Translations under genes and position numbers: made by a program
Shown: positions 7,973 through 24,000 of the stretch, in pieces
How positions within the stretch are numbered: position 1 is the stretch's first letter
How the letters are laid out: the number at the start of each line of letters is the position of its first letter
Notes under the pieces: model-generated
Database searches by the model: none
Seen by the model: only the letters and a program-made list of their open reading frames with translations
Told to the model about the DNA's origin: nothing
From: Coxiellaceae bacterium
GTDB taxonomy: Bacteria > Pseudomonadota > Gammaproteobacteria > Coxiellales > Coxiellaceae
Assembly: GCA_965214015.1 (NCBI GenBank)
Contig: CBDCAS010000022.1
Coordinates: forward strand, 274,175 to 298,174
Length of the DNA: 24,000 nucleotides
Direction: 5' to 3'

Positions 7973-8350
7973 AAACCATAAAAATCCGATAAAATCAATA
8001 AGTTAAAAAAGAATAAATCGTATACCAAAAAACGATGTTGGTCAGAAATAATTAAAAACACACTCTGAATATCCTAAAATTCGCTAGCATTACTGCTTAT
8101 GCTTATTTTTAAATCACAGAGGCTAAGGTTAAATGGAAGGTCTTTCATTATCCCAGATTGTCGCCAAATGATCCCTTGGTGATCCCACAGATTTGGGTAG
8201 ATTAGCTCAGAATCGTTTGCTTTCTGAGCACTCCAGTTTTCTATATTGTGCAATAATTGCTTGAACATAAGAAGATTGGTTAGGTGATGAAACATGCGCA
8301 TTTAGTGCTGGATTTTATTGAAGAGTCGGTGAGGCGGTTGGATTGAAGTA

Positions 8351-8380
8351 GGCTCTCTGTACAATCTGATACAGAGAGCC
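8351..8380. other. Perfect 11-bp stem / 8-nt loop hairpin (GGCTCTCTGTA-caatctga-TACAGAGAGCC)
   Basis: Read directly. It lies 15 nt past the stop of the minus-strand 39-aa ORF. There is no U-tract on either strand, so it is not a canonical intrinsic terminator. Confidence 0.5.
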
Positions 8381-8395
8381 CAACTGCTCTGCCTG

Positions 8396-8515
8396 CTATT
8401 TACATTTTTTAGGCAATTTAGCGGGTGTAGACCGCTTATGTGGTTTTACTGGTACCGTCTTTGGTCCTGGTTTTTTAGTCGTCCGAGTTGGACGACATTT
8501 CGTTTTAGTTGGCAT
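8396..8515 (-). CDS. Hypothetical 39-aa highly basic Lys/Pro/Thr-rich peptide
   Basis: It falls below the ORF-track length cutoff. ATG at 8515-8513 lies 4 nt after AAGGAGG (reverse complement of 8520-8526). Translation is MPTKTKCRPTRTTKKPGPKTVPVKPHKRSTPAKLPKKCK, with the stop at 8398-8396. I recognise no homology. Confidence 0.3.
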   Translation of the reverse strand: MPTKTKCRPTRTTKKPGPKTVPVKPHKRSTPAKLPKKCK

Positions 8516-8644
8516 GATGCCTCCTTAAACTTTTGTGGGCGCATTCCGGTATTGGGAAACTTTTGGTATGCTTCAGTTGCGAAATCGAAGCAATTCAAAA
8601 GAACCGTTACATGCGCCCGTTGCTATAACGGTTTTCCACTGTTG

Positions 8645-8673
8645 TTGAACTTTTTCGTTCGATATGGCATAAT
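8645..8673 (+). promoter_or_regulatory. Sigma70-like promoter TTGAAC-N17-CATAAT upstream of the XRE gene
   Basis: The -35 is at 8645-8650 and the -10 at 8668-8673, with a 17-nt spacer. It sits about 55 nt upstream of the ATG at 8731. Motif match only. Confidence 0.4.
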
Positions 8674-8730
8674 AACAATGCTTTATACTTTTGTAAAGAA
8701 CAGATTCGTTCAATATTTCGGTAAATATTT

Positions 8731-9051
8731 ATGGCTTCAACTCCATTGGGAACAAAAATTAAACAGCTTCGAAAGGCCAAGGGTTTTTCGCTAGAAGAGC
8801 TGGCCAGTCAAACTGGCATGAGTAAGAGTTACATTTGGGAGCTTGAAAACAGGCCTGCCAATCCCACCACAGAAAAGTTGAGTAAGCTTGCTGATGCGTT
8901 AGATGTAACCACTGCTTACCTTACAGAAAGCAGCAGTGAATTAACGAATGAGGTTTTACAAGAAGCTTTTTTTAGAAAGTTTAATCGGTTGATCGATGAA
9001 GACAAAAAGAAAATTGAGCAGATCATCGAGCTATGGGGTAAGAAAGAATGA
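8731..9051 (+). CDS. XRE-family helix-turn-helix transcriptional regulator
   Basis: 106 aa. It has a classic HTH_3 pattern: 'LGTKIKQLRKAKGFSLEELASQTGMSKSYIWELENRPANPTTEKLSKLADALDV'. A 4-nt ATGA overlap joins it to the next gene. Confidence 0.85.
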   Translation: MASTPLGTKIKQLRKAKGFSLEELASQTGMSKSYIWELENRPANPTTEKLSKLADALDVTTAYLTESSSELTNEVLQEAFFRKFNRLIDEDKKKIEQIIELWGKKE

Positions 9052-9920
9052 CTTTGCCAAACACACCAATAGCCTGGGCTGGTCGGTTGTCAATGATTCA
9101 CAAAACATTTTGTGTTGCTCATGCCATTGATCGTTTTCCATTAGATACTTCTACATTAGTACACGAATATTCAAAACAATTTTTCCCCAATGAGCCTATT
9201 ACAAAAGTGCAGGGTGAAAACTTTGGTGATCAATTTGAAGGTGCTTTAGTTCCTAACGATGATAAAAACGAATGGTTAGTTATTTACAACCAAGCAACTA
9301 AGAATGCTGGTCGTATTAATTTTACGATTGCCCATGAGTTTGGGCATTACCTTCTGCATAGACAAGATATCGTTATGCGAAAGCAGTGTACAAGGCATGA
9401 TATGTCTAGCTGGTATTCTAATGACAGTAATATTGAGATAGAAGCAAATACCTTTGCCGCTAGGTTTTTAATGCCTACAGAGGATTTTTTTAAACAAATT
9501 CACAGCCAAGAGATTTCTTTAAGTCTAATACAACAATTGGCTAATCGATATCAAGTATCATTAAACGCTTTAGTACTCCGGTTAATTAATATCATAAAAC
9601 AACCCGCTATGGTTGTGTCGACTGTTGATGGTTACATCAATTGGGCTTGGTCTAATGATCGGTTGATGAAGTTGGGTGTTTATTACCCTGCGAGACAAAA
9701 AACGATTGAACCTCCATCCAAATCATTAATCAATCGTGGAATTAATGGCACGATTGAATGTTTGCATAATGAGGGGGTTTGGATGGGTCCTGGTCAAGTC
9801 AAAGAAATTTTAGTTTACCACAAAGAAGAATTTTCATTGTCGTTGTTGCTTTACGATCCCAAGCTTAACAAAGACGATGTATGCAATGAATTAACTGAAA
9901 ATGAAGAGGAGTTCGCATAA
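9048..9920 (+). CDS. ImmA/IrrE-family (COG2856/DUF955) zinc metallopeptidase with an extra C-terminal domain of about 110 aa
   Basis: It has the HExxH motif 'FTIAHEFGHYLLH' followed by 'EANTFAARFLMP', the family's second signature. It is translationally coupled to the XRE gene. Residues from about 180 to 290 are unassigned. Confidence 0.85.
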   Translation: MTLPNTPIAWAGRLSMIHKTFCVAHAIDRFPLDTSTLVHEYSKQFFPNEPITKVQGENFGDQFEGALVPNDDKNEWLVIYNQATKNAGRINFTIAHEFGHYLLHRQDIVMRKQCTRHDMSSWYSNDSNIEIEANTFAARFLMPTEDFFKQIHSQEISLSLIQQLANRYQVSLNALVLRLINIIKQPAMVVSTVDGYINWAWSNDRLMKLGVYYPARQKTIEPPSKSLINRGINGTIECLHNEGVWMGPGQVKEILVYHKEEFSLSLLLYDPKLNKDDVCNELTENEEEFA

Positions 9921-10230
9921 ATAGCGATCAGATTAAAGAACTTGAAAAAAAATTATGGAATTCAGCCGATAATCTTCGTGCAAATTCCAAATTAACAGCG
10001 GCAGAATATAAAGATCCTATTCTAGACCTAATTTTATTATTTTATGTACTAAATGACAGGTCTGATTAATAATTGTTCAATTGAAAAACTTAATGGAGAA
10101 TAAGGATATTTGCGAAGCGGTTAATCAAGCCATGCTCAGGCTTAAAAAAATATAAAGATCTTGAGGAGGATTGTTGCCAAAAATTATCAATATAAATTTG
10201 TGAACAGTTACGCAGAAATTTTTAATTGGG
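9920..10230 (+). pseudogene. hsdM: Decayed 5' remnant of a type I restriction-modification methylase gene (hsdM, HsdM_N region only)
   Basis: There is no start codon. Positions 9920-10066 translate to NSDQIKELEKKLWNSADNLRANSKLTAAEYKDPILDLILLFYVLNDRSD*. That fits the HsdM N-terminal signature (..LW..AD.LRG....EYK...L.LIFLKY..). Positions 10093-10152 give MENKDICEAVNQAMLRLKKI*. With frame changes, '..KDL..' and 'AKNYQYKF' follow. These resemble the next conserved HsdM_N block as I remember it (..Am..IEkeN..LkgvlPknY..). No catalytic N6-methyltransferase domain follows. Confidence 0.55.
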
Positions 10231-10246
10231 AAATGGAACTTTACCA

Positions 10247-11770
10247 ATGGCGAAAAAACATAAATTATCAATCTATTTGCTTAAAGAAGAACTAAGCCCA
10301 GAAGATTGCTTAACAGAAGATACGGAAGTTTCCAATTTTGATAAGGTTAATAATTGGAAAATTATTATTAAAACAAAGCCTAAATATGAACCAGAATGGT
10401 CAAGTTATTTGGGCTTGAATATCAAACTAGTAAATGCAAGTGCTATTCTGTTTATTCTTTTTGATAAACGTTGGTTTGCTATAACATTTAATTATGCTCA
10501 TTACCTGCTTGATAAAAGTAAATTAATTACGGATTTTGGATTAATTACAGCTCTAAATATGCTTGATCCAAATAAAATAAAAAGTTCAGATGTTTTTGCT
10601 CCCTCCGATCACTCAAAGCAAAGAAGAACTCAGACGACACAATACTCTAATTTATATGGCCATGGTATGGATAGTTGTTCTAATATTCTAAAAAATATAA
10701 CAGGGAGAGTGCAAGATGAATATGAAAAATTATCTAAGAGTATTAGCGCAACACATAATAGTATAAAAATTAATACTACCTATCCAGTAGAACATTTAAA
10801 TAATCTTTGTAAAGATTTATTTGATATTTACTCTAAAAAAGATTACTGCAATAATTTTCCTGAAATATTTAATATTCAAGAGATCAAGGACATTTGTTTA
10901 ATTAATAAATTAAATGCTAAGCTGTTAAATTCTGTTAATAATAGAGAAGGTATATTTTATTTAGAAATACCTGAGTTAATTGATTTTCATCAAATTGATC
11001 ATTATCAAATTAATGTTAAAGATCATAAGCAACATAATTATGAAGAGATTTCTATATCAAATTTCTTTGAATCAATACAAGATAAAGTTAAAATTACAGT
11101 TGAAAATTTAAAAAAATGGCAGCTATTTATAATTGATCAAAGTGATAGAAAAATAAAATCTTTTTCAATTTTTGATTGCTTTGTATTCGATTGTGATATT
11201 GACAATGTTGAATTTCATTTATCACATGGAAAATGGTACTCTTTAAGTCATGATTTTTCTGAAGAACTTCAAAAAATAAATGAAAATAGGAAAGAAAAAA
11301 TTAATGGTGAAAAAATTCCAAACTTTAAATTTAATAATGAAGGTGAATATAATCAAGTGCTTGCTGATCATTTATCGGCACATTGCCTAGATAAACAATG
11401 TATTCCTATGGGAGGATACGATAAGATTGAGCCTTGTGATGTTTTATGTATTTCTCAAGACGATAAAAATATTTTTATCCATGTAAAAATTAAACATGGT
11501 GGATCATCAGGTTTAAGTCATTTATTTGAACAAGGCGATGTTTCTCTTATCCTGCTCAATAAAAAAGATCAAAAATTTATTAATGGCATCCGTAAAAAAG
11601 TTTCTAATTTTAATAGTGAAAACGTTAAAATTATCCATTATCTTATTATAGGTGATCCATTAAAAAAATTACCTCTATTCGCTAGAATTTGTCTTTTTAA
11701 ATATATAAAAAGTATTGAATCAAGAGGTGCAACTGTTTATTGGTCTATTGTTCCAAACCTAAGTAAATGA
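10247..11770 (+). CDS. TIGR04141/DUF6119-like 'sporadically distributed' protein with a C-terminal PD-(D/E)xK-like motif; function unknown
   Basis: 507 aa from the ATG at 10247; the ORF track begins at TTG 10226. It contains 'KLSIYLLKEE', 'WFAITFNYAHYLLD', 'DFGLITALNMLDPNKIKSSD' and the C-terminal 'IEPCDVLCIS..FIHVKIKHGGSSGLSHLFEQGDVS'. The family assignment is from memory of these motifs and is not a search result. The gene is extremely AT-rich. Confidence 0.8.
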   Translation: MAKKHKLSIYLLKEELSPEDCLTEDTEVSNFDKVNNWKIIIKTKPKYEPEWSSYLGLNIKLVNASAILFILFDKRWFAITFNYAHYLLDKSKLITDFGLITALNMLDPNKIKSSDVFAPSDHSKQRRTQTTQYSNLYGHGMDSCSNILKNITGRVQDEYEKLSKSISATHNSIKINTTYPVEHLNNLCKDLFDIYSKKDYCNNFPEIFNIQEIKDICLINKLNAKLLNSVNNREGIFYLEIPELIDFHQIDHYQINVKDHKQHNYEEISISNFFESIQDKVKITVENLKKWQLFIIDQSDRKIKSFSIFDCFVFDCDIDNVEFHLSHGKWYSLSHDFSEELQKINENRKEKINGEKIPNFKFNNEGEYNQVLADHLSAHCLDKQCIPMGGYDKIEPCDVLCISQDDKNIFIHVKIKHGGSSGLSHLFEQGDVSLILLNKKDQKFINGIRKKVSNFNSENVKIIHYLIIGDPLKKLPLFARICLFKYIKSIESRGATVYWSIVPNLSK

Positions 11771-11781
11771 GGAGTGCCTTA

Positions 11782-11919
11782 ATGCAAACATTTAACTTTA
11801 ATGAAGAATATCTATCACAAATTTCTAATTTAATTATAATTGACCAATATCTGAGTGCAATCTACAATATTCAACCAACCCATAAAAGTTATAACTTATT
11901 GATTTTGGTAGAAAATTAG
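11782..11919 (+). CDS. Hypothetical 45-aa ORF immediately downstream of the DUF6119-like gene
   Basis: The ATG lies 7 nt after GAGGAG (11769-11774) and 11 nt after the upstream stop. Translation is MQTFNFNEEYLSQISNLIIIDQYLSAIYNIQPTHKSYNLLILVEN. It may be a gene fragment. Confidence 0.3.
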   Translation: MQTFNFNEEYLSQISNLIIIDQYLSAIYNIQPTHKSYNLLILVEN

Positions 11920-12570
11920 TGAAAACTCAAAATTTAAACCCTTGTCACTGTGAATGCCCGCCTTATGATGCAAAAACACGCAGTGATAGAATAGGTAATT
12001 TACCGATTTTAAATAATTAATTTTTCAAATGACAACATATTTCACAAAATACCGCATGTCATGTAAGCGGTGAAAGGCGTAACGCCTTTGGCAATGAAGG
12101 CGATTATATTCGGATTGTCTGTTTACTGAAATTGTCATTTTCGGCAATATTTTTTTAAATATACGCTAAGTTCAGTGATAGCAATATCATTGGCTTTGTT
12201 TACCCTACCAAATATTAACTAACCACTATAAGTTAATGGTTATTATACTTTAAACGATTTCACTGCTATCTGAGCAATGCGCACATCAGATAACTTTAAC
12301 TATTCTTATTAACTTCGATATATCGAGTTAATGAAATTTTACTGTGAGCTATAAAGTTTACATCGTTTGATGCAACCAACTGGAAACAGATTAATAGTCT
12401 GGGTTTTACACCGAGATTATGAATAGGCTTACGGCCTTGGTTGTTAGGTTACGCCAAAGCAAGTTCTACTTGTCCGTTGATAAGCCTATCGGCTTATCGC
12501 GTGGTGTACCACCACTAAACAAGCACAAAAACGATAGTACAGTTCAAATTTTCAAAACAGCAAGCGCTTA

Positions 12571-12605
12571 GCGTCACGTTATGACAGAAATGTCTAACGT
12601 GACGC
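12571..12605. other. Long hairpin: 15-bp stem (one bulged T) with a GAAA tetraloop, about 80 nt upstream of the recombinase ORF
   Basis: GCGTCACGTTATGACA-GAAA-TGTCTAACGTGACGC, read directly. A second 6-bp hairpin, ACGCGC-AGA-GCGCGT at 12602-12616, overlaps its 3' arm. The two structures are therefore mutually exclusive. Confidence 0.5.
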
Positions 12606-12723
12606 GCAGAGCGCGTTATATAATAAATATTATGAATCAATAAGATAAACCACTTTTAAAGGACAAAATAACCATTACCATTCCGTGACAGTTTACAAAA
12701 CGACTTATTTATCGAGGTATAGT

Positions 12724-13602
12724 GTGAGTAAAAAACATCAAATGATTAGCTCAGTCATTACAACAATTAAAAATAACAAGGACGGCTCATATAGAACGCA
12801 GGACGATCGTCGGCATGCATTAATAAAAATTGCGAAAGATGTGCATGAGCTTGGATACAAGCTTGACCATATTCGTTATATGAAACCCAAGCATATTCAT
12901 GCTTTGGTGAAGTGCTGGAAATCTCATGGTGACAATCCAGGCAGCATGAAAAATCGCATGAGTCATTTACGATGGCTGATGTGCAAATTTGATGGAAAAA
13001 TTCACATGGTACCCAGCAATGATGAGCTAGATATTCCTAGACGAATCTATATCAGTAATCAGAATAAATCTGTACAGCTAACATCGGTAGATTTTGAGCG
13101 AATTAAAGATCCTATGATGTGCCATAGTTTGAAAGGTCAAACGTTGTTTGGGCTACGTATGGAAGAGAGTATTAAACTGGAACCTTTCATCGCAGATACT
13201 GGAGAGTTTCTGTATGTACAAAAGACGAAAGGGAATCGTGAACGGATGATCCCGATTTTAACTACCAAGCAGCGAGAATGGCTTGAAGCAGCAAAGCAGT
13301 TAGCTCAGCATAACAGCCATTCCCTCATCCCAGCGGATACCCACTATAAGACCTATCGCAGTCGTTTTGATAAGGCTTGTAAGCGGGCGGGTATTAACAG
13401 TCGACATGGTTTGCGGCACTGCTATGCGCAGTGCCGCTATAAAGAATTGACGGGTTGGGAACCACCGGTAAAAGGTGGCCCTAAATTGGCTGATATGAAT
13501 TCAGATCAAAAGTACTTGGATCGCGCTGCACGATTACAAGTGAGTCTGGAGTTGGGGCATAGTCGTCGGAATATACTAAGTGTCTATATTGGCACGACAT
13601 AA
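12724..13602 (+). CDS. Tyrosine recombinase / integrase (small, plasmid/island type)
   Basis: The catalytic pattern is R ('FGLRMEES'), H-x-x-R ('HGLRHCYAQ') and H...Y ('LGHSRRNILSVYIG'). The start is ambiguous: GTG 12724 lies 6 nt after GAGG, the ORF track uses GTG 12685, and an ATG at 12742 is also possible. Confidence 0.85.
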   Translation: MSKKHQMISSVITTIKNNKDGSYRTQDDRRHALIKIAKDVHELGYKLDHIRYMKPKHIHALVKCWKSHGDNPGSMKNRMSHLRWLMCKFDGKIHMVPSNDELDIPRRIYISNQNKSVQLTSVDFERIKDPMMCHSLKGQTLFGLRMEESIKLEPFIADTGEFLYVQKTKGNRERMIPILTTKQREWLEAAKQLAQHNSHSLIPADTHYKTYRSRFDKACKRAGINSRHGLRHCYAQCRYKELTGWEPPVKGGPKLADMNSDQKYLDRAARLQVSLELGHSRRNILSVYIGTT

Positions 13603-13910: not shown

Positions 13911-14234
13911 AACTGTTACAATGGTTGGTGCGTGTAAAGAGGGCATTGCTAAAATTCAGTAAGAGAGATGTATAGTCTCTAATTGGGTTAAAATACCTAT
14001 TTTCTAAATGCTTAAAGATTAAGCTTTTTTCAATTTTAGCTGAGAATCAAGCCTACTACCTTTAGATAGTAGTGTAGAGCGTTTGGATCAATAGAGTTGT
14101 TGTATTCACTAATTGTTGATTGAGTTAATATGAACATTGTAGTAGCTAATGAGTGAAATAATAGAGCAAAATATATTCAAAAAAACAATCTTCACCTTTG
14201 GTATTGGATGTATAGTTCAAAGAGGTAAATTTTG

Positions 14235-14960
14235 ATGAATAGAAGTTCTGAAAAAAAAGTTGCAGTCATCACTGGTGCTAGTGGAGGTATTGGTGAAGGA
14301 GTGGCACGTTATTTTCTTGAAAAAAATTATAAAACAATTTTGATTGGAAGGAATGTTAATCGAATAGAAAGTTTGAGCACAGAGTTTTCTGGAGAGAATG
14401 TGACAATATTGAGTTGTGATCTTAGAAATCATGAGGAAATAGTAAAAAATATAAATATAACTCTCGATGCGCAAGCTAGAGTTGATGTATTAGTTAACAG
14501 TGCAGGATATGTAAAGCGTGGTACTTCCGATCTTTCACATGAAGAATTTGTGAAAATGCTAGAAACTAATTTGGTTGGGTTATTTGATATCACTAATGCA
14601 GTTATTCCTATCATGAAGAAGCAGTCCGCTGGAAGAATTATTAATATATCTTCTTATTCAGGTGTTGTAGCAAGAGATTGTTTAGGTGGGTATGCGGCCT
14701 CTAAATTTGGCTTAATGGGTTTGAATGAATCTCTGCATAAAGAGTTAGCACCTTACGGTATTTATGTCACTGCTATTTGTCCTAACTTAGTAGATACAGA
14801 AATGACCAGGGATGTAACTTCAATTGAGCGAAGTGAGTTTATTCAAGTAGATGATATTGTGAAAACAATTAATTATCTTATGAATCTCACGCCTAGCGTT
14901 ATGGTAAAAGAGTTAGTTCTTAGATGTCGTGCGAAGTTGCTTAAAACAGTAGATGGGTAA
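14235..14960 (+). CDS. Short-chain dehydrogenase/reductase (classical SDR)
   Basis: It has 'TGASGGIG' (TGxxxGxG), 'NSAG' and the catalytic 'YAASK' (YxxxK). The ATG at 14235 lies 9 nt after AGAGG. Confidence 0.9.
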   Translation: MNRSSEKKVAVITGASGGIGEGVARYFLEKNYKTILIGRNVNRIESLSTEFSGENVTILSCDLRNHEEIVKNINITLDAQARVDVLVNSAGYVKRGTSDLSHEEFVKMLETNLVGLFDITNAVIPIMKKQSAGRIINISSYSGVVARDCLGGYAASKFGLMGLNESLHKELAPYGIYVTAICPNLVDTEMTRDVTSIERSEFIQVDDIVKTINYLMNLTPSVMVKELVLRCRAKLLKTVDG

Positions 14961-15407
14961 ATATTTAGATATGAATAAACTTCATAAATTATTTTCTGGA
15001 ATTATCGATTTTACTATTTTTTTATTCTTTATCTTAAGCTTTATACTTCTAATATAGAGTGACTGACTGCATAGGAAAATCAATTTATTCAATCAATAGA
15101 ATAGAAAATGATGACAGCTGATTAAGCTACTGAAAAATTTATTAACTTGAGGCAGCTTATGCAAAAAATAAAGATTTAATGAGTCATTTATCCATGAATA
15201 AATGTAACTCTTTATTTAAGAAAACTGTATCTAGTTATGATCTTATTTTAGTTTGATAGTCCTCTTATTGGGTTCAAACCCCCATTTTCCAGATGGTTTA
15301 AACACGTAAGACATGCGAAGCATGACATTGCAAACTTTAGTGCGCTAGCATATCCGGCTTACAGCCAAGATTTCCAACCCACCAACTTTTAGTTGGTGGT
15401 AGTTGAG

Positions 15408-15440
15408 TTAAGAGGATATTTTAGCTCCCTCTTAATTTTA
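15408..15440 (+). terminator. Terminator-like hairpin TTAAGAGG-(12 nt)-CCTCTTAA followed by TTTTA
   Basis: Read directly. It is preceded by a 9-bp hairpin, CCACCAACT-TTT-AGTTGGTGG, at 15379-15399. No intact upstream gene ends here. The loop is long and the stem AT-rich, hence the low confidence. Confidence 0.3.
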
Positions 15441-15454
15441 GTTATAATGAGCAT

Positions 15455-15760
15455 TTGAAAAAGCATCATGAAAAATTAAGTCCTAATACAGCATCTAGAA
15501 ATTTGAAAGTCTCTCTTAAGGAAGAAATCAAGGATTTGGGTTTTTCTTTAAATAAAGAAAGCTATTATTATGTCCCAAGTATTTTGCCATGTTATAAAAA
15601 GAAATATTATGAATATATGATAGAAACAAGTAAAATAATCGGTTGTGAGAAAAAAGTTTTGGATGATATTAACAATTGGTATGAGTTAACAAATGCTTTT
15701 GAACAGATAGGATTGTTCATAAATTACCACATAAGATCAGATGGAAAAAATAGATGTTAG
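15455..15760 (+). CDS. Hypothetical protein; possibly the detached N-terminal part of the downstream hydrolase
   Basis: It is a 101-codon ORF starting at a TTG with no SD. A TATAAT at 15443-15448 lies only 6 nt upstream, which makes this start doubtful. The C-terminus '..GLFINYHIRSDGKN' resembles the first beta-hairpin that normally precedes the GGPG motif of S33 hydrolases. Confidence 0.35.
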   Translation: MKKHHEKLSPNTASRNLKVSLKEEIKDLGFSLNKESYYYVPSILPCYKKKYYEYMIETSKIIGCEKKVLDDINNWYELTNAFEQIGLFINYHIRSDGKNRC

Positions 15761-16521
15761 ATGAACTGCAGTGGATAGTTGTGCCTGGAGGCCCAGGATT
15801 GTCAAATAGCTATTTAAGGTATGCTTTGGAAAAGATACCTATAGCGTGTAAGTTACATTTTTATGACGTGTATGGTTCTCCTGAATCTGATAATAAAAAT
15901 CCTAGCCTTAATGAAATGACTGATCAGATTGATCTTGTAGCTAATAAAAATAATCTAAGTGAATATGGTTTAATCACACACTCCTTTGGTAATTACCTTG
16001 TTATGAGAGCATTTCAAAAATCTAAAGGAAGTATTAAAGCAATTATTATGTTAAATCCTATTCCTTATGAATTTCATGCCTGGAAAGAAGCTTTATCTGG
16101 TATTATAAAAAGAGTTCCAGAAACTATTTTTAAGGAGATGATATCTTTATCAAGCTCTGATAAGCCTGATGCTGGAGTTAAGCTATTTCGTTTGATATTC
16201 CGTTACTATGTAGCAAATAGAGATTCAGATTTGCCAGTAGAAGTTCCTTTTGATAGTAATGTATGTAACACTATTGCGGGAAAAGTACCTAAATATAATG
16301 ATAAAGAGTTAGTTTCTTCAGCCTCTATTCCAATAGTAAGGATTGTTGGAGGTTCAGATCTTTTTTTTGATGATCATAAAATTTTGCTAGAAAGAACAAT
16401 TATCTTACCTAAAGTAGGACATTATCCGTTTTTTGGGGATCCAGACAGTTTTTACAAAGCTATAAGAAATGCAGGAGAATTGTTATGTCAGCAGATGGCA
16501 AAAATGACAAAAAAGTGCTGA
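15754..16521 (+). CDS. Alpha/beta hydrolase (S33 prolyl-aminopeptidase-like)
   Basis: The oxyanion motif 'VPGGPG' is only 10 residues from the N-terminus. The nucleophile elbow is 'THSFGN' and a C-terminal 'VGHYPFF' supplies the His. A 7-nt overlap joins it to the upstream ORF. Confidence 0.8.
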   Translation: MLDELQWIVVPGGPGLSNSYLRYALEKIPIACKLHFYDVYGSPESDNKNPSLNEMTDQIDLVANKNNLSEYGLITHSFGNYLVMRAFQKSKGSIKAIIMLNPIPYEFHAWKEALSGIIKRVPETIFKEMISLSSSDKPDAGVKLFRLIFRYYVANRDSDLPVEVPFDSNVCNTIAGKVPKYNDKELVSSASIPIVRIVGGSDLFFDDHKILLERTIILPKVGHYPFFGDPDSFYKAIRNAGELLCQQMAKMTKKC

Positions 16522-16706
16522 TAAGATTGCGTGATATTCGTAGATCCAAAGGTATGTCGCTTAATGCGTTGGCTGATGAGGTTATGGAAGTCATAGCCTT
16601 GATTGAAAATTTTGTTATTATTGATAACTCAGTGGAGGTAGATATGGAAAGTAAAGCAAGGTCTGACATCAAAAGGGAGTTAAAAGTTCTAACTGATGGT
16701 AGCTAA
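16485..16706 (+). CDS. Small (73 aa) XRE-like HTH protein, putative cluster-associated regulator
   Basis: The ATG lies 7 nt after AGGAG (16473-16477). 'LIRLRDIRRSKGMSLNALADEV..ALIEN' resembles the first two or three helices of HTH_3. It overlaps the hydrolase 3' end by 37 nt and the convergent methyltransferase 3' end by 18 nt. Confidence 0.4.
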   Translation: MSADGKNDKKVLIRLRDIRRSKGMSLNALADEVMEVIALIENFVIIDNSVEVDMESKARSDIKRELKVLTDGS

Positions 16707-17807
16707 AATTAATGCAGCATCACTGTGATGATTGTTAAAAAATACGGCGTGTGTTTTTTTATATCCAGTTAATTGCAATACAGTTTGCCAAGTATCAGCT
16801 GATATAAGTGGTGTAAATTTTCTCCAGTTATCATTAAACAACCACCATCCATGAGTTATACCCATGATTAAATTGTTCCAGCGACCGGTTGATGTAGTTT
16901 CTAAAAGACATAAGGTACCATTTTTTGATAATAACGTTTGTAGATTTTTAAGCGTTAATTCTAGATTTGGTGTGGCATGCACGATGTCTTGCCCAATGAT
17001 TATATCATATGAATTTGGAACTAAATTTTGCCCTAATGGCTCTCTTGTTACATCAAATTTGAAGCAATATAAATTACTAATTTGTTTTTTACTTCCATAA
17101 CGTTTCATGTCGATTACGAATCGCTTTGATAAGTCTGTGAAATGATATTTAAGGTTATGTGTAGGTTTGATATAGTCAAACAGTTGACGAGTAAAAAGAC
17201 CACGTCCACCACCTATCTCAAGAATTCGTAGAGGTATAGTATTGTTGATTTTTAATGTAGATTGTATGGCAATGTCTTGAATTATCGGCATTTCTGAGTA
17301 TGTATCTGTGTCTTGAGAGTAGAGTTTATCAAGAAAATTTGTATTGCCTGCGGGGAATAAAATACTAATAGATGGTACTGTTTCTGATAATGCTACTGGG
17401 TAATGATTGACACAGTGCTGGAGAAGTTCAAGTGTACCTTGGAACATCGGATAACTATTTTTCAAAGTTGCTATATCAATTGGTATTTTCTGGTTTGATT
17501 TGAATGTTAGAGAATTACTTTCAATCTTTATTAGGCCATCATCATTAAGAATTTTCAACATATACCTATAAAATTTGGTAAAATTGTTAGTAATGTTTAA
17601 TTTGTTTTTTAATGTATCAATGTTTATCTGTCGACTACAACCAGAAGAGAGCAGATAATTATAAACATAAGCAGCGCATAGCTGATTACACTTTTGAAAA
17701 AAATCGGGAAATTGTTTATCTAAATCAGGAACATTGCGATAAGTTGTTAAGTGAATATTTTCGGCGATATCCATGAAATAATGAAAGTTATTAGTTTCAG
17801 TACGCAT
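16689..17807 (-). CDS. Class I SAM-dependent methyltransferase (type 12-like, with an N-terminal helical domain)
   Basis: 372 aa. Motif I is 'RILEIGGGRGLFTRQL', followed by an acidic 'HFTDLS' post-I region. About 190 aa precede the Rossmann fold, as in natural-product methyltransferases. Confidence 0.85.
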   Translation of the reverse strand: MRTETNNFHYFMDIAENIHLTTYRNVPDLDKQFPDFFQKCNQLCAAYVYNYLLSSGCSRQINIDTLKNKLNITNNFTKFYRYMLKILNDDGLIKIESNSLTFKSNQKIPIDIATLKNSYPMFQGTLELLQHCVNHYPVALSETVPSISILFPAGNTNFLDKLYSQDTDTYSEMPIIQDIAIQSTLKINNTIPLRILEIGGGRGLFTRQLFDYIKPTHNLKYHFTDLSKRFVIDMKRYGSKKQISNLYCFKFDVTREPLGQNLVPNSYDIIIGQDIVHATPNLELTLKNLQTLLSKNGTLCLLETTSTGRWNNLIMGITHGWWLFNDNWRKFTPLISADTWQTVLQLTGYKKTHAVFFNNHHSDAALILATIS

Positions 17808-17816
17808 TAAATTTCT

Positions 17817-18791
17817 CTATAATTTGCTAGTTAACCTCATAACATCTTGGTGTTTGGGTCCTGGTAAACTATCTAAGTAGGCATTGATAGTATCGGTGAC
17901 GGCAGCTTCACAATCTCTGTATACCGGACTACCAGCACCTTTAAATAATTTATAAGTAAGTCTGTTACTTGGTATTGCACTTGCTGTTCGCTTAGCACTC
18001 GCAAGAGTATGAACGGGGTTTTGATCACCTGCCAAAACCAATATAGGACATTCTACATTAAGTAGATATGGCAAGAAGTTAAAGTAATTTAGCTCACGAT
18101 TATTAAAAATGTAAGCAACTTCAGGATTGGTGACACAATTGGTGATCATTTCTGGTTCATAAGGCTTGGTTGCACAATATGGGATACAGGTTCTAACATA
18201 CTCAGCATAGGTCTTAGCATTTGTATTAGAGAACATTTTTTTAGCAACAGAGCATACTTCAGTTACCCTAGTTTCATCATAGCCTTTGTCTCTGACCTTC
18301 TGTGCGAAGTGTTCTAATACTTCATCTAAATTAAATTGAGCATCGGTATCACAAAGAATTAGCCCACCAAGTTTACTTGGATATTGTGTGGCACAGGACA
18401 TTGCAACAAATCCACCAAACGAGACACCAGCTAAGATAGGTTGTTCAATTCCAAAAGCAGTAAAAAAAGTATGAACATCTTTACCCCATTGTTCTAATGT
18501 CCAGAGAGATTCATCACCATAGTCTCTAGTACCCTCTTTTTCATAGTAACTTCGGCCAGAACCTCGATGGTCAATAAATATAACTTGCAAAGGTAAACCA
18601 GATAGATTTTTAGTACTAAATTTAGACCAATAGGATTCATATAGTGTATGATCTACAACCCCTGGACCACCATGAAGAAATATTAAAGTGTGTTGCTTTG
18701 GATTAATTTTTTTATTTAATTCTTCTGTTGAACCATAGACTTTGTAAAATATTCTTATATCATTGGGAATTTCAAAATAATTAGTAAACAT
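17817..18791 (-). CDS. Alpha/beta hydrolase, prolyl aminopeptidase (S33) family
   Basis: 324 aa. It has 'LIFLHGGPG' and the nucleophile elbow 'GVSFGG'. GAGGATAG lies upstream of the ATG. It is 12 nt downstream of the transporter gene. Confidence 0.85.
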   Translation of the reverse strand: MFTNYFEIPNDIRIFYKVYGSTEELNKKINPKQHTLIFLHGGPGVVDHTLYESYWSKFSTKNLSGLPLQVIFIDHRGSGRSYYEKEGTRDYGDESLWTLEQWGKDVHTFFTAFGIEQPILAGVSFGGFVAMSCATQYPSKLGGLILCDTDAQFNLDEVLEHFAQKVRDKGYDETRVTEVCSVAKKMFSNTNAKTYAEYVRTCIPYCATKPYEPEMITNCVTNPEVAYIFNNRELNYFNFLPYLLNVECPILVLAGDQNPVHTLASAKRTASAIPSNRLTYKLFKGAGSPVYRDCEAAVTDTINAYLDSLPGPKHQDVMRLTSKL

Positions 18792-18803
18792 AACTACTAT
18801 CCT

Positions 18804-19514
18804 CTAAGTTTTATTTTTTGTGTCTAATGAAAATGGATTGAAATTTATATTTGATTCAACAACATTTAAGCCAAGCTTACGTTTAAGATAACTCACTAAA
18901 AAAGCTACTGGTATGCCACCAATTATTGTATAACTTAATCTTACTATAAGATCAGATAAAAATAATTTTTCAATTACAATGATAGGTACAGAACCCCAGA
19001 AAGATAATAGAAAGAACACTGCAAGGGCAATAGCACTACCTAGTAAAGTTGAGAATACACTTCGTAACCAAAAAAAACGTCCTTTTAATAAAATTTTCCA
19101 TTTAGTCATTAAAATAATGTTTGCAAATCTACCAATGAACATTGCTAGTACTGCTGCTGGAGCAGTTTTTAGAATGGGGTCAAATATTGCATCATAATTT
19201 GCTTGAGAGTGCCAATAGCTGGGTGATGGCAAGTGTACAATAAATACAACAGCAAGTGAGAAAATAATGGTGCTTGCAAAAATCATCCATAACAAATATC
19301 TTGATACTTTATAACCATATATTTCAACAATAATATCTTCAAGTAAAAAAATAAATGGTAGTATAGCTAATCCACCAGGGCCAACTAGGGGGCCCATAGC
19401 AATTAATTTATATGTGACAGGGATACCAATTAAATTAATGGTATAATAAAGCATAGTTAGAAATCCTAGCACTTTAGATTTTTTATCGAAGTTTAAAGCG
19501 TTATTTGGTTGCAT
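18804..19514 (-). CDS. VUT-family (DUF165, YhhQ-like queuosine-precursor transporter family) membrane protein
   Basis: 236 aa and polytopic. 'LPFIFLLEDIIVEIYGYKVSR' aligns with E. coli YhhQ 'FPFIFLATDLTVRIFGAPLAR'. 'FWLRSVFSTLLGSAIALAVFFLLSF' aligns with 'WWLAPTASTLFGNVSDTLAFFFIAF'. Both YhhQ segments are recalled from memory. GAGGATAG lies upstream of the ATG. Confidence 0.8.
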   Translation of the reverse strand: MQPNNALNFDKKSKVLGFLTMLYYTINLIGIPVTYKLIAMGPLVGPGGLAILPFIFLLEDIIVEIYGYKVSRYLLWMIFASTIIFSLAVVFIVHLPSPSYWHSQANYDAIFDPILKTAPAAVLAMFIGRFANIILMTKWKILLKGRFFWLRSVFSTLLGSAIALAVFFLLSFWGSVPIIVIEKLFLSDLIVRLSYTIIGGIPVAFLVSYLKRKLGLNVVESNINFNPFSLDTKNKT

Positions 19515-19534: not shown

Positions 19535-22500
19535 TTATTTATTGAAAAGTTCTTCAAACATATTGTTATCTTGCATCATACTAATGATATTTTGATGTTT
19601 AGCATTGACGTTTATAACTTCAACTGTATTTGTAATTTCTCCCCAAAAGTTTGTGGCATTATTTTCTACGACCATCTCTAAATCAACAGCGTTAGCTTTA
19701 TAGAGTTTAATATGGTGATTAGAAATCTGAGGTTGATAGTTAATTAACATCTTTAAACGCATCCATAGCATTTTTTTCCATAATTCATCTTCAAAAATAT
19801 ATGATTTATCAAGCTTTTTATACCATATGTTTTTAAATAGTCTAAAGACATTGTATTTTTTAGGATACTTTGCCCAACTATCAAGCATAATAATTTGGTT
19901 TACAAAGATTCCTGATTTTTGTAGTTGGAGTGCCATTTCATAGGCTACGTTTCCACCAAATGACCAACCGCATAGTGTAATTTCGTTAGTTAGATGGTCT
20001 TTGAGCATATTGATATAGTATTGAGCCATATCTTCTATAGAATTGATATCAGAATTAATATCATTTAGAACCTGGTTTTCAACACTAATAATTCTAGTAT
20101 TAGGAAGGTAAAGCTCAGAAAAGAAATTATATTGATAACTACTTCCACTACCAGAATGAATCAATACCAGTATGTTTTGGCCATCTTTTTTAAGGATATT
20201 ATATGTAGGTAAATTTCTATTATCCTTTTTAAGAAGAATGGCTATCAATTCCTCAAAATTATTAGATTTATAAAAATCATCTATGCTAATTAATATATTA
20301 TATCTTATATGTATTTGAGTTATGATCCCTAGAGCTATTAATGAGTCACCATCTAAATTAAAAAAATTATCACTTAAATTAACTGAATCCATATCCAAAT
20401 CTTTCGCTATAATATTTAAAATATCTTTAATGATTTCTAAATGCTGCATTCCACTGATTAGTATATGCGTTTGACTGTTATTATTTATATTTTCCAATGG
20501 TTTATTTTTCTTATGCTCAATATTTACATTGTTAGTTTGATTATTAGATTCAAAAAAATATTTTTCTGTATTTTGAAAAATAGCAGTTGAGTCATGCTTT
20601 TCTCTGAAATTTGATGCAGTTTTTTCAGATTTTAATAGTACATGAACGTTGGTACCACCAATGCCAAACGAGCTCACTCCGGCATATAAAACATCTTTGG
20701 ATAAGTTTACAATTCTCGCGTTAATTATAAATTTTTCGGAAAATTCATGACATAGTGGATTCCATTTCTTAAAATTAATTTGTGGCGGGATGATCTTTTG
20801 GTTTAAAACTAGAGCTGTTTTAATTAATCCACATAAGCCAGCTGCTGCACCTGTATGACCAATATTTGCTTTACTTGCACCAAGATAAGTTATATTTCCA
20901 TTACTGTTTGTTATTGATTCAGATAAAGCTTTTAATTCAACTGCATCGCCAATTTTAGTACCTGTGCCGTGAGTTTCTATAAATTTTAATGACTCAGTAT
21001 TGAAATTTTGGTATATATTTTTTAGACAGTTACTTTGCCCTGAAATACTCGGTGCAATGTAACCAACTTTATCATTGCCATCATTATTAATTGAATAACT
21101 CTGGATGGTGGCAACTATGCTGTCACCATCTTGAATAGCAGCTTCATGTTTTTTAAGTGCAATGGCCACTACAGCAGAACCAGGTACAGTGCCTGACGAG
21201 TTTTCATCAAAAGGACAACACTTACCATCATTAGACATAATACCATCCGGCTCAAAATAGTATCCAGGCAAATATTCCTCGAGAACCATAGAAGCAGCGC
21301 AGACAATGGCAATCTCACATTCATTATTTTTTAGACTGTTTATCGCTTGAGTACATGCTGTAAGAGAGCTTGAACAGGCAGTACTCACAGTAACAGCAGG
21401 ACCATTTAAACCCAGCTTATAAGCAATTCGGGTTGCAATAAAGTCTCTAGAATTTCCATATTGAAGATTTCGTTTAACTTGCCAAGGTAAATTATTTTCG
21501 TGGATAAGTTTTTTATATTGTGAACTATCTATGCTTGCAAATACACCTATATTTTGATTTTTGATTGTAGTTTCAATGTTTGCATTTAGTAAACACGCGT
21601 AACAAATTTCTAACAACATTCGTTGTTGTGGATCAATATATTTTGCCTCTGAAGGTGAGATTTTAAAAAATTTAGCATCAAAAATATATGGATTATTCAG
21701 TACACCCGCAATGGGTATAAAAGATTCATCATACTTTGATAAACTCACGGATGTATTGAAATTTGTTAGGCAATTCTTTCCATCAAGTAAATTTTGCCAA
21801 AAATATGAGATGTTATCAGCGTCTGGAAATTTACCAGCCATACCAATTATTGCAACAGTTTGATTATCTGATGTATTCCTTGATAGTTTTGTGATTTCAT
21901 CGGTGTTTACTTGTGATGGATTATGTAGATAATGATTAAGTTTTTCTATGCTAGGATAGTTAAAAATATCTATTACACTAATCGATTTTTGAAGTGCTGC
22001 AGAAAGTTCGGCGGCTAGTTGAACGGCTAATATTGAATTCCCACCAATTTCAAAGAAATTATCATCAAGTTCAGAAGTCTCATGTTTCAGCAATTTTTCC
22101 CAGATATGTCTGATTATGTTAATATCAGTATTCACAGGCCATTTTTTTATATTTTTTTGCTTCTTCTTTGCTTTGCTATCTAAATAGGATTTAAGATTCT
22201 TAAAGTCTATTTTTCCATTCGTTGTTTTTGGAAGTTTTGCAATTATTTCAAAGCGACTAGGAAGCATGTATATCGGTAGCTTCATACTGGCGAAATTCTT
22301 GAGTGCTCTAATTAAGTCAGTTTCATCTGCCATTGGTAGTTGCAAGATTGGCAACTTGTTAATTTGATTGATAGACTTCCTACTAGCAAATACTATAAAT
22401 AAATTTGTTTCAGTCAAAGAGTCAATTTTATAACAATGTAGATTATATCCTTTTATTGTTAACAATTCTTTTATGGGAGTAAGTCTACTATCAACATTAT

Positions 22501-24000
22501 TGACTTCAATGACAATCGTTTGGATGATATTCCAGTGGTTATTTTTGATGCCAAGCAATATATCAAGCTCAGAACCTTCTGAATCTATTTTTAATAAATC
22601 AATTTGTTTGATATAGTGCTTCTCAATTTGATCTGATAATGTTTCGACATTACATTCAATAGATTTAGATTTTAATTTATAATTGACAATATCATTTTTT
22701 AAATGATTGTTATCAATATTTAGCGAAGACTTCAATAAATATTTCTGTTCGTCAGTATAGTTATATAATGTTGACATCGATGTTACATTTTCGAAATATG
22801 TAAATCGTTTTGTGCCAGATCTATTTGATAAACCTACAGTATTGATAGTGAGGTTAAGACTATATAGATTTTTATTAGTGTTAATACACTCGCAAAGTGG
22901 CGCAAAAGGTTCATAAGCATATATCTTTGCTTTGCTATTCATCAAGCCAACAAATAAGGAAAATAGCCCTATATTTGCACCCACATCAAAAATAACAGAA
23001 TCATCACTAATTTCTGTTTTACATCTCAAATAATCTTGATTAATGAAAATTTCTTTGTATAAAGAAAGTGTTTCGCTTGGATTTATATCAGAGACTAGTA
23101 AACCATTAGGTAATTTTGTTTTATGGGTAAAATCACTATTTTGTAGGCTCATAAGGTTGAGTATTGGCCTTGCTAAAGTATGGCTTGGGACAACAAATAC
23201 AATCAGTGATTTTTGAGAATCATTTTCATCATCAACATATATAGCTATATCATCAATATATTCAGAGGTAGCCAATATTGATTCTATCTCCTTCAACTCT
23301 ATACGGTAACCTCTAATCTTTACCTGTGAATCATTGCGACCAATATATGACACTAAAGAATTATTATCTTTAATCGCAATATCACCTGTTTTATAAAATG
23401 ATTTATCAGTGTAATTTGTTAATCTTAAAAATTGATCTTCAGTGAATTTTTTGTTGTTGATATATCCTTGTGCTACACAGTTTCCATAAATATATATTTC
23501 TCCAAAAAATCCAGGTGGAACTTCTAATTTTCTTTCATCTAAAAGTAGTATTGAATTACCATATAGTGGTTTCCCAATTGGTGTGCCAATTCTATTTTCA
23601 CGTATCACGTACTCATCAAGAAACTGGTAAGTGACATGTATCGTTCCTTCGGTAATACCATACATGTTAACTAAATATGGAATTTGAGAAGAAAAGTAAT
23701 TAAACCAATTTAGAATTACTTGATTATTAATTGCTTCACCACCAAAAATTATATACCGAAGCGGTAGCACTTTCTCATACCGCTGTTTAATAGCCTGCTG
23801 TGAGAAAATGCTAAATGCTGTTGGTGTTTGATTAAGTATGGTAATATTTTTGTCGATTATTAGCTGGTATAAATGATCAGGTGATTGAATGGTGATTTTA
23901 CTTGGGATAACTAGCTTAGAACCATGTAGTAATGCTCCAAAAATTTCCCAGATTGAAAAGTCAAAAGAGTATGAATGATATAGTAGCCAGCAATCATTGG
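19535..24000 (-). CDS. Hybrid NRPS-PKS megasynthase, 5'-truncated by the window edge. Visible domain order: A(interrupted by methyltransferase)-T-KS-T-TE.
   Basis: The ORF-track start at 23770 is only the first in-frame start codon. I translated the frame upstream and it stays open to position 24000 (..NDCWLLYHSYSFDFSIWEIFGALLHGSKLVIPSKITIQSPDHLYQLIIDKNITILNQTPTAFSIFSQQAIKQRYEK-VLPLRY..). That stretch is A-domain sequence. Domain motifs are listed in the sub-features below. Confidence 0.95.
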   Translation of the reverse strand, partial: NDCWLLYHSYSFDFSIWEIFGALLHGSKLVIPSKITIQSPDHLYQLIIDKNITILNQTPTAFSIFSQQAIKQRYEKVLPLRYIIFGGEAINNQVILNWFNYFSSQIPYLVNMYGITEGTIHVTYQFLDEYVIRENRIGTPIGKPLYGNSILLLDERKLEVPPGFFGEIYIYGNCVAQGYINNKKFTEDQFLRLTNYTDKSFYKTGDIAIKDNNSLVSYIGRNDSQVKIRGYRIELKEIESILATSEYIDDIAIYVDDENDSQKSLIVFVVPSHTLARPILNLMSLQNSDFTHKTKLPNGLLVSDINPSETLSLYKEIFINQDYLRCKTEISDDSVIFDVGANIGLFSLFVGLMNSKAKIYAYEPFAPLCECINTNKNLYSLNLTINTVGLSNRSGTKRFTYFENVTSMSTLYNYTDEQKYLLKSSLNIDNNHLKNDIVNYKLKSKSIECNVETLSDQIEKHYIKQIDLLKIDSEGSELDILLGIKNNHWNIIQTIVIEVNNVDSRLTPIKELLTIKGYNLHCYKIDSLTETNLFIVFASRKSINQINKLPILQLPMADETDLIRALKNFASMKLPIYMLPSRFEIIAKLPKTTNGKIDFKNLKSYLDSKAKKKQKNIKKWPVNTDINIIRHIWEKLLKHETSELDDNFFEIGGNSILAVQLAAELSAALQKSISVIDIFNYPSIEKLNHYLHNPSQVNTDEITKLSRNTSDNQTVAIIGMAGKFPDADNISYFWQNLLDGKNCLTNFNTSVSLSKYDESFIPIAGVLNNPYIFDAKFFKISPSEAKYIDPQQRMLLEICYACLLNANIETTIKNQNIGVFASIDSSQYKKLIHENNLPWQVKRNLQYGNSRDFIATRIAYKLGLNGPAVTVSTACSSSLTACTQAINSLKNNECEIAIVCAASMVLEEYLPGYYFEPDGIMSNDGKCCPFDENSSGTVPGSAVVAIALKKHEAAIQDGDSIVATIQSYSINNDGNDKVGYIAPSISGQSNCLKNIYQNFNTESLKFIETHGTGTKIGDAVELKALSESITNSNGNITYLGASKANIGHTGAAAGLCGLIKTALVLNQKIIPPQINFKKWNPLCHEFSEKFIINARIVNLSKDVLYAGVSSFGIGGTNVHVLLKSEKTASNFREKHDSTAIFQNTEKYFFESNNQTNNVNIEHKKNKPLENINNNSQTHILISGMQHLEIIKDILNIIAKDLDMDSVNLSDNFFNLDGDSLIALGIITQIHIRYNILISIDDFYKSNNFEELIAILLKKDNRNLPTYNILKKDGQNILVLIHSGSGSSYQYNFFSELYLPNTRIISVENQVLNDINSDINSIEDMAQYYINMLKDHLTNEITLCGWSFGGNVAYEMALQLQKSGIFVNQIIMLDSWAKYPKKYNVFRLFKNIWYKKLDKSYIFEDELWKKMLWMRLKMLINYQPQISNHHIKLYKANAVDLEMVVENNATNFWGEITNTVEVINVNAKHQNIISMMQDNNMFEELFNK
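19538..20188 (-). other. Type I thioesterase (TE) domain
   Basis: It has 'LVLIHSGSGSSYQY', the nucleophile 'LCGWSFGG', 'IIMLDSW' (Asp) and 'NAKHQNI' (His). It is the terminal domain before the stop at 19535-19537. Confidence 0.85.
20225..20458 (-). other. Carrier domain T2 (ACP-like)
   Basis: It has 'DNFFNLDGDSLIALGI'. It lies only about 60-90 Asn-rich residues after the end of the KS. Confidence 0.8.
20630..21862 (-). other. Ketosynthase (KS) domain with an intact Cys-His-His triad
   Basis: It has 'VAIIGMAGKFPDA', 'DPQQRMLLE', 'TVSTACSSSL' (Cys codon at 21374-21376), 'ETHGTGTKIGD' and 'SKANIGHTGAAAG'. Confidence 0.9.
21926..22138 (-). other. Carrier domain T1 (PCP)
   Basis: It has 'DDNFFEIGGNSILAVQL'. 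The phosphopantetheine Ser codon is at 22034-22036. Confidence 0.85.
22181..22375 (-). other. C-terminal A-domain subdomain (motifs A9-A10)
   Basis: 'LPIYMLPS' (A9) and 'NGKIDFKNL' (A10, with the invariant Lys) follow the methyltransferase insert. Confidence 0.85.
22376..23128 (-). other. FkbM-family (Methyltransf_21-like) methyltransferase domain inserted between A8 and A9
   Basis: It contains 'NPSETLSLYKEIFINQDY', 'VIFDVGANIGLFSLF', 'KIYAYEPFAPL', 'RFTYFENVTSMSTL' and 'IDLLKIDSEGSELDIL'. The DVGANiG and KiD.EG.E signatures are how I remember FkbM-family methyltransferases. Confidence 0.75.
23129..24000 (-). other. NRPS adenylation domain, core part (motifs A4-A8 visible)
   Basis: The motifs are 'FDFSIWE' (A4), 'NMYGITEGT' (A5), 'GEIYIYGNCVAQGYIN' (A6), 'YKTGD' (A7) and 'GRNDSQVKIRGYRIELKEIE' (A8). 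Confidence 0.9.

Follow-up and report, generated by a model that had tools for sequence, protein, structure and literature searches.

Lundy, Mori and Garneau-Tsodikova (2020, PMC8341866) describe as family 2a, A8-Ms(O,Ser/Thr)-A9, the interrupted adenylation (A) domains of nonribosomal peptide synthetases (NRPSs) in which a type II methyltransferase (M) domain of 290 +/- 13 residues lies between motifs a8 and a9 (n=149 in NCBI in 2020). The M domains of this family have an unusual S-adenosylmethionine (SAM) motif, DVGx(N/H)xG, and their assayed representative is KtzH, whose substrate is L-Ser (PMC8341866). FrsG of the FR900359 pathway also has a type II M domain, its substrate being L-Thr and its product N,O-dimethyl-Thr, an assignment that was made from the structure of the product and not by assay (PMC8341866; PMC9259500). 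Both KtzH and FrsG are listed as PF05050/FkbM matches (Paoli et al. 2022, Suppl. Table 5, PMC9259500), and since the KtzH insert itself belongs to PF05050, an "FkbM-type insert" is nothing other than the type II M domain already known from family 2a. Here we analyze a stretch of 24,000 nt (the window, whose positions serve as coordinates throughout) from contig CBDCAS010000022.1 of a Coxiellaceae bacterium (GCA_965214015.1), in which the minus strand of 19535..24000 holds a partial open reading frame (ORF) for a hybrid of an NRPS and a polyketide synthase (PKS), as identified from its translation and from Pfam and NCBIfam domain tables. On the evidence of its sequence, the window codes for the last NRPS module of this hybrid, and the A domain of that module is an interrupted one of family 2a, a divergent member that pairs an FkbM-type insert with a Thr-type pocket code. 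Such a pairing is already described and abundant, and the module is a divergent addition to a known family.

The reading frame (19535-23998, minus strand, as are all features of this gene) runs uninterrupted for 1487 codons, by which residues are numbered here, to a stop at 19535-19537, and its 5' end lies beyond the window edge at 24000. In the Pfam and NCBIfam tables the visible domain order is A(A4-A8)-M-A(A9-A10)-T-KS-T-TE, where T stands for a carrier, KS for a ketosynthase and TE for a thioesterase domain. The core of the A domain, with motifs A4 to A8 (residues 1-271; 23186..23998), is recognized by PF00501 (1.7e-30), by TIGR01733 (1.9e-61) and by alignment to GrsA; the AMP-binding match covers residues 2-179 and corresponds to the second half of the profile, so that the window must begin near motif A4. 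Motif A4 (FDFSIWE) is located at 23945-23965, A5 (NMYGITEGTIH) at 23636-23668 and A8 (GRNDSQVKIRGYRIELKEIE) at 23282-23341. These are followed by the FkbM-type (type II, Ms(O,Ser/Thr)) methyltransferase insert of 284 aa (residues 272-555; 22334..23185) and then by the rest of the C-terminal subdomain of the A domain (22184..22333; GrsA alignment and PF13193, AMP-binding_C, residues 560-596), in which A9 (LPIYMLPS) lies at 22256-22279 and A10 (NGKID), with the lysine of the specificity code (K517 equivalent), at 22205-22219. The GrsA-anchored alignment places the insertion site after the last beta-strand following A8 (LIVFVVPS), up to which the protein is colinear with GrsA, and colinearity resumes just before A9.

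The insert is matched by Pfam Methyltransf_21 (PF05050) at 60.7 bits (cut-off 22.7) and by NCBIfam TIGR01444 (fkbM_fam) at 88.1 bits (cut-off 37.7), the FkbM profile match spanning residues 335-510, and its length falls within the published range for the family. The A/M boundary, published as L(V/A/I)(A/G)(Y/F)xxx for family 2a (PMC8341866), reads LIVFVVP here, with Val at the third position where Ala or Gly is published. The SAM-binding motif ii (VIFDVGANIGLFSL, with FDVGANIG inside; 22955..22996) provides an exact match, IFDVGANIGLFSL, to the published (V/I)(F/I/V)DVGx(N/H)xG(L/M)F(S/T)L; the acidic beta-2 residue, E363, stands in YAYEP inside 22874-22912, and D338, G340, G344 and E363, all of them present in the insert, are invariant in 97 of 97 homologues. 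Motif v, at 22568..22603 with KIDSEGSE inside, covers beta-4 and the following loop; IDLLKIDSEGSE differs from the published (I/V)DLLKdD(V/A)ExxE only at the V/A position, which is Ser, and the residues around it include the conserved K470, E474 and E477 and, in place of the usual Lys475, a Gly. Three further type II motifs have been published (i, EIFxxxxYxxxG; iii, EPdP(E/P)xxxxx(R/A/E)xN; iv, FT(Y/F)YPxx(S/T)x(L/M)SG; PMC8341866), and their counterparts here, EIFINQDYLRCK, EPFAPLCECINTN and FTYFENVTSMST, keep the cores and are altered elsewhere (Gly to Lys, Pro to Ala, Tyr-Pro to Phe-Glu, Gly to Thr), the same variants being found in an orthologue, P0245, that is described below. An AlphaFold2 model of the insert, built from a 58-sequence alignment (pLDDT 91.1, pTM 0.89), has the strand and helix order of a Rossmann-type fold, and the top Foldseek matches of this model are class I methyltransferases (probability 1.00); as modeled, the insert is a class I (Rossmann-fold) SAM-dependent methyltransferase.

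The specificity code was read by aligning the protein and 120 homologues (MAFFT) to the landmark segment of GrsA-PheA and extracting the ten code columns automatically; as a control, the GrsA segment reads DAWTIAAICK, matching the published code and numbering. For the query the ten columns give D-F-W-N-I-G-M-I-H-K, nine of them (D F W N I G M I H) from the A4-A8 core and the tenth, the lysine, from A10. This is identical at nine of ten positions to the Thr code DFWNIGMVHK, the remaining difference being a conservative one, Val330 to Ile, and by its pocket code the A domain is Thr-type. Relative to GrsA the spacing from FDxS to TPT is equal, there is a net gain of seven residues before IIFGGEA, and an extra insertion of five residues precedes A5. 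A preliminary description of this DNA, made from its letters, had already placed an FkbM-type methyltransferase between A8 and A9, and the placement is borne out by both of the profiles that it had named (Methyltransf_21 and TIGR01444, each above its curated cut-off), by the GrsA alignment, and by the SAM-binding residues, which are in place (motif ii exact; D338, G340, G344 and E363). The code that it had read by eye, with V330I as the one departure from the Thr code, is the code that the automated extraction returns; the unchanged FDxS-to-TPT spacing and the seven extra residues before FGGEA likewise recur in the alignment, the five residues before A5 having gone unmentioned. The strings it quoted are all present where it had put them, on what it had failed to recognize as the minus strand, and the code can be read without upstream sequence, all ten code residues being inside the window. 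It also overlooked the departure from EVH to EVN in motif vi and the downstream T-KS-T-TE context, both of which are taken up below.

Compared with the kutzneride enzyme, KtzH(A8-MII-A9)4, the module has the same a8-a9 insertion point, the same PF05050 family, the same SAM motif, DVGx(N/H)xG, a closely similar insert size (284 aa as against 290 +/- 13) and the same predicted chemistry, O-methylation of the side chain of a beta-hydroxy amino acid. The two differ in that KtzH activates L-Ser and the query has a Thr-type code; in that motif vi of the query has EVN and not EVH, with motifs i, iii and iv only partly matched; in their hosts, an actinomycete for KtzH and a low-GC Coxiellaceae-like gammaproteobacterium here; and in that the query module feeds a KS rather than a condensation (C) domain. 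KtzH, moreover, needs KtzJ, whereas no MbtH-like partner gene is seen in the query window. Module 8 of FrsG (family 5c; FR900359) resembles the query in having a type II (FkbM, PF05050) M domain after a8 of a Thr-specific A domain, and differs from it in that a type I M domain for N-methylation comes in addition and the a9-a10 spacer is duplicated, where the query has a single insert. Among natural products, puwainaphycins A-E contain O-methyl-Thr, and their cluster is described in the puwainaphycin paper without an O-methyltransferase domain.

That modules of this kind are common was evident from a search of the A(M) region against 5.8 billion proteins, from which the best 120 homologues were taken: AMP-binding and PF05050 occur together in about 100 of these 120, and column extraction finds a Thr-type code together with the insert in at least 20 of them (for example P0001-P0005, P0010, P0011, P0018, P0020 and P0021), others having Ser codes. 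P0017 and P0245 carry exactly DFWNIGMIHK. Database proteins in which an FkbM-interrupted A domain has the code DFWNIGMVHK (P0001 from Microseira, P0002, P0010 and P0012) resemble the query in having the insert and a Thr code that is identical to its own or almost so, and differ in being mostly 31-44% identical to it and in occurring in ordinary C-A(M)-T or A(M)-T-TE contexts. An exhaustive HMMER pass with the insert over 1.84 billion cluster representatives (50%-identity clusters) matched 811 clusters at E<=1e-30, nearly all within proteins of 1000-7000 residues, and 138 insert-bearing representative segments included 20 with Thr-type and 25 with Ser-type codes. The preliminary description had known of no characterized FkbM-type insert paired with a Thr code; this part of it does not survive, given that FrsG is described, that KtzH, the precedent which it had itself named, is a PF05050 protein, and that at least 20 of the 120 homologues and 20 of the 138 segments combine both. 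Many FkbM-type a8-a9 inserts were seen outside Ser/Thr-coded A domains, with codes such as DLTKIGHVGK, DLTKIGEVGK, DAWQFGLIDK, DAWTLGNVVK and SSRDLAMGIK (among P0036-P0110 and the representative segments), and within the DLTKxGHxGK group an Asp replaces the His of motif vi. Taken at face value, these codes mean that "Ser/Thr", as published, is perhaps too narrow a label for type II M domains. A more distant homologue, P0261 (1842 aa), consists of a family 4 glycosyltransferase fused to C-A(FkbM)-T, with the code DMYNMGMIHK and, in motif vi, the rare EVNN.

Two orthologues of the gene allow its missing part to be reconstructed and its peculiarities to be traced. P0245, located in the locus L082 (JGI 3300045502, Ga0494960_00003806), is intact, has 2184 aa and is 52% identical to the query across all 1487 query residues; it has the same architecture, the code DFWNIGMIHK, EVNN, and the clade-specific forms of motifs iii and iv. 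Judged from this orthologue, the N-terminus that lies outside the window comprises T-C-A(A1-A3), about 700 aa, and the complete enzyme, as read from the orthologues, is T-C-A(M)-T-KS-T-TE. The other orthologue, L001 (GCA_040384165.1, contig JAWVHB010019664.1), keeps the consensus EVH (EVHN) together with the Gln of motif vi, and has its gene split in the methyltransferase insert. An IS200-type Y1 transposase gene lies downstream in L001, and the split is either a pseudogene or an assembly error.

From the code and from homology, the reading that we prefer is that the insert is an active O-methyltransferase which would give O-methyl-Thr-S-T; we put its probability at roughly 0.6. What has to be weighed against it begins with motif vi, which the homologue alignment locates at 22496..22534 (WNIIQTIVIEVNN). 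Here it reads WNIIQTIVIEVN and departs from the published WxxIxQdxxEVH, Gln having become Thr and His having become Asn; when the consensus is taken one position further, WxxIxQdxxEVH(D), the insert has EVNN and the changes are Q494T, H500N and D501N. Of the Thr-coded homologues 20 of 21 have the His, as do 11 of the 12 Ser-coded ones; the Gln is found in 93 of 97, and the residue after the His, usually Asp, is Asn in the query. The corresponding stretches of the orthologues are WHLIKQIVVEVNN in P0245 and WNLIEQIVIEVHN in L001. In the AlphaFold2 model the His position is the last residue of beta-5, at its C-terminal end, and in class I methyltransferases, by the general fold, that end faces the cofactor and substrate site; on this model the change of His to Asn could impair catalysis. 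Other conserved positions of the insert are changed as well (G327K, P366A, G410T and K475G). The split in L001 consists of a deletion of about 30 codons and a frameshift (L001:3400-3600), and suggests that loss of the insert is possible in this lineage. We also count V330I in the code as a weakness in the prediction. Neither a structure nor a mutagenesis study that assigns the catalytic residues of a type II M domain turned up in a search of the literature, and a search on the catalytic residues of FkbM-family enzymes returned nothing usable. Since motif vi is a published pattern of conservation rather than a demonstrated catalytic element, membership of family 2a, which is based on homology, stands.

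The same observations are those to be expected if the insert were a catalytically dead relic kept for its structure, Thr being incorporated with a free hydroxyl before KS extension. The three motif vi substitutions fall at positions where His, Asp or Gln is found in ~90-95% of the Ser/Thr-coded relatives, the further changes at conserved insert sites are non-conservative, the deletion and frameshift of L001 lie within the insert, and the host region is AT-rich, the codon changes from His to Asn and from Asp to Asn being of the kind that AT pressure would favour. We nevertheless regard such a relic as unlikely. The SAM-binding elements are all intact, and EVNN is common to the query, to the intact P0245 (52% overall identity) and to the unrelated P0261, from which we argue that it is a conserved variant rather than the product of random decay. 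When the query is compared with P0245, identity is 49% in the insert, as against 24-30% in the linkers and 41-60% in the other domains, and highly conserved sites are retained no worse in the insert (41 of 52) than in the A core (41 of 50); the insert has thus not decayed disproportionately, the gene as a whole being uniformly divergent. Asn, moreover, can serve as ligand or as hydrogen-bond partner in O-methyltransferases that depend on a metal, COMT among them. An active methyltransferase is ranked above a dead relic because there is no insert-specific decay and because EVNN is conserved in P0245.

Two other alternatives concern what is methylated rather than whether methylation takes place. 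The A domain might load another beta-hydroxy or small polar residue, such as Ser, allo-Thr, beta-hydroxy-Val or similar, which would then be O-methylated: position 330 is Ile and not the Val of the Thr code, and this Ile is conserved in P0245 and P0017; L001, as aligned, differs at position 299 too (DFWNFGMIHK); and specificity codes predict but do not prove. Nine of the ten positions match the Thr code, however, including the D235 and K517 anchors, and N278, M322 and H331 separate Thr codes from the Ser codes (DVWHxSLxDK) that the insert family also uses, so that a substrate other than Thr seems to us quite improbable. Still harder to credit is a methylation of some other atom than the Thr hydroxyl, either the backbone amide nitrogen or the enol of the beta-keto product after KS extension. 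FkbM-family EreM has been shown to N-methylate backbone amides (PMC9259500), the clade-specific EVNN could accompany an altered chemistry, and FkbM-type inserts occur also in Asn-, Asp- or Gln-type A domains, whose substrates have no side-chain hydroxyl; against this, every a8-a9 type II insert with a known product (KtzH, ColG and FrsG) O-methylates Ser or Thr, and the gene cassette described below has a separate stand-alone methyltransferase that would be available for methylation of an enol or a carboxyl. Loading of Thr followed by its O-methylation, which the preliminary description had proposed as a possibility, thus stands as the best-supported of these readings, by code and by homology.

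Downstream of the A domain the ORF continues with a peptidyl carrier (T) domain at 21929..22114 (PF00550, residues 629-690), whose phosphopantetheine serine lies within FFEIGGNSI at 22031-22057, and with a ketosynthase at 20591..21859 (PF00109, PF02801 and PF16197; residues 714-1158) in which the Cys-His-His triad is intact (TACSSS, ETHGTGT and KANIGHT). The closest relatives of this KS include KS domains fused to A domains. An acyl carrier protein (ACP) domain (LDGDSL; 20234..20431, the second PF00550 stretch) and a type I thioesterase domain (GWSFGG; 19538..20191, PF00975 7.5e-18, residues 1276-1382) complete the visible part, and the serines of both carrier domains and of the TE are intact. 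With its triad and a downstream ACP (DGDS), the KS is, by its motifs, a condensing type I PKS ketosynthase at a hybrid NRPS-PKS interface. The ORF has no acyltransferase (AT) domain after the KS, the gap from KS to ACP being only ~110 residues, and neither an MbtH-like gene nor an AT was found in the window or among the L082 neighbours. Since the PKS module lacks an AT domain, malonyl must be loaded in trans; for this KS-ACP-TE module (19538-21859) it might come, for example, from the fatty-acid FabD.

The course of assembly that these domains suggest would begin with adenylation of L-Thr by the A domain, as predicted from DFWNIGMIHK, and its loading onto the downstream T domain. The embedded FkbM-type methyltransferase would then transfer a methyl group from SAM to the beta-hydroxyl of the T-bound Thr, as homology of the KtzH and FrsG type suggests, to give O-methyl-Thr-S-T; KtzH and TioN reportedly methylate on the T domain, and serve here as the analogy for this step. 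From the order of domains, the upstream C domain, which is seen only in the orthologues, would acylate the amine of Thr, the cis KS would carry out a decarboxylative condensation with malonyl-S-ACP, loaded in trans, and so add a C2 unit, and the TE would release the chain. Further tailoring and export are suggested by the three neighbouring genes on the minus strand: immediately downstream, a membrane protein of the Vut_1 / queuosine-precursor-transporter family (18804..19514; PF02592, TIGR00697), then an alpha/beta hydrolase (17817..18791) with below-cut-off similarity to models of the proline-iminopeptidase family and to lactonase models, and a stand-alone class I SAM methyltransferase (16689..17807; Methyltransf_12/23). 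These three genes recur downstream of the L082 orthologue without change of order (transporter 72%, hydrolase 62% and methyltransferase 44% identity), and from this synteny the four genes are taken to be a conserved cassette.

A possible precedent for the later steps is found in althiomycin and chalkophomycin, for which a PKS module, a stand-alone O-methyltransferase and an iminopeptidase-like hydrolase have been proposed to build the methoxypyrrolinone (PMC11085572). Common to these systems and the query are a peptidyl-aminoacyl thioester that one PKS module extends, malonyl-specific in the known cases, and the presence nearby of an O-methyltransferase and an iminopeptidase-like or thioesterase-type hydrolase (PMC11085572), to be set beside the KS-T-TE, alpha/beta hydrolase and class I methyltransferase of the query cassette; the analogy is one of gene content alone, and the query differs in that its PKS module is without an AT and has its own TE. 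By this analogy one might speculate that tailoring consists of enol O-methylation and lactamization, as in methoxypyrrolinone formation.

In L082 (1-19984) a free-standing C-domain-like protein and an S24 repressor are encoded upstream of the intact orthologous cluster, and the cassette adjoins AfsA-type butenolide genes, a divergent operon that encodes AfsA (butenolide/gamma-butyrolactone synthase family), an FAD monooxygenase, a HAD protein, an SDR, a stand-alone AMP-ligase, an ACP and a KASIII; its content hints at an acyl starter unit or a signalling-molecule pathway tied to the NRPS-PKS. In the window, the plus strand of 14232-16521 converges on the cassette with an SDR gene (14232-14960), an ORF of 101 aa (15455-15760) and a weak alpha/beta hydrolase match (15754-16521); of these, the SDR alone is matched in L082, and weakly so (25% identity). 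Housekeeping DNA of ~40% GC makes up the window's first 9 kb, with genes for a NUDIX hydrolase, a GAF-PEP-utilizing enzyme, IleRS, signal peptidase II and LytB/IspH; the best genome matches of the IleRS are Coxiellaceae metagenome-assembled genomes, at only 59-60% identity. After a tRNA-Lys(ttt) gene (7900-7972) comes an island of low GC content (27-33%), in which regulators resembling capH and capP, a gene for a DUF6119 protein and one for an integrase precede the NRPS-PKS cassette. The capH-like HTH gene (8731-9051; PADLOC capH, 98 bits) and the capP-like M78 peptidase gene (9048-9920; PADLOC, 190 bits) lie directly upstream of the gene for a DUF6119 protein of 514 aa (10226-11770; no PADLOC match), and the integrase is at 12685-13602. 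By gene content, this part of the island (7900-13602) looks like a regulated candidate defence cassette.

The current view of interrupted A domains is unchanged by this module, in that its architecture, its methyltransferase family and its pairing with Thr were all described before; its interest is modest and lies in its EVNN variant, in a KS-T-TE continuation that lacks an AT and in the unusual lineage of its host. If active, it would bring to a family of which very few members have been assayed (KtzH and ColG, both Ser) an O-methylating A domain that is Thr-specific, has a single insert and comes from an unusual lineage, and the natural variant of His to Asn could help to pinpoint the catalytic residues of type II M domains. 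We would also put forward, as a doubtful conjecture, that a small, Coxiellaceae-like and probably intracellular clade (the query, P0245 and L001) has its own sub-type of type II M domain, marked by EVNN and by its own motifs iii and iv, in a fixed T-C-A(M)-T-KS-T-TE enzyme with its cassette, and that this makes a new small metabolite with O-methyl-Thr (for example a methoxypyrrolinone or a signalling molecule), or else that EVNN has changed or abolished methyl transfer. The conserved cassette, for its part, points to an uncharacterized small hybrid metabolite in Coxiellaceae-like bacteria.

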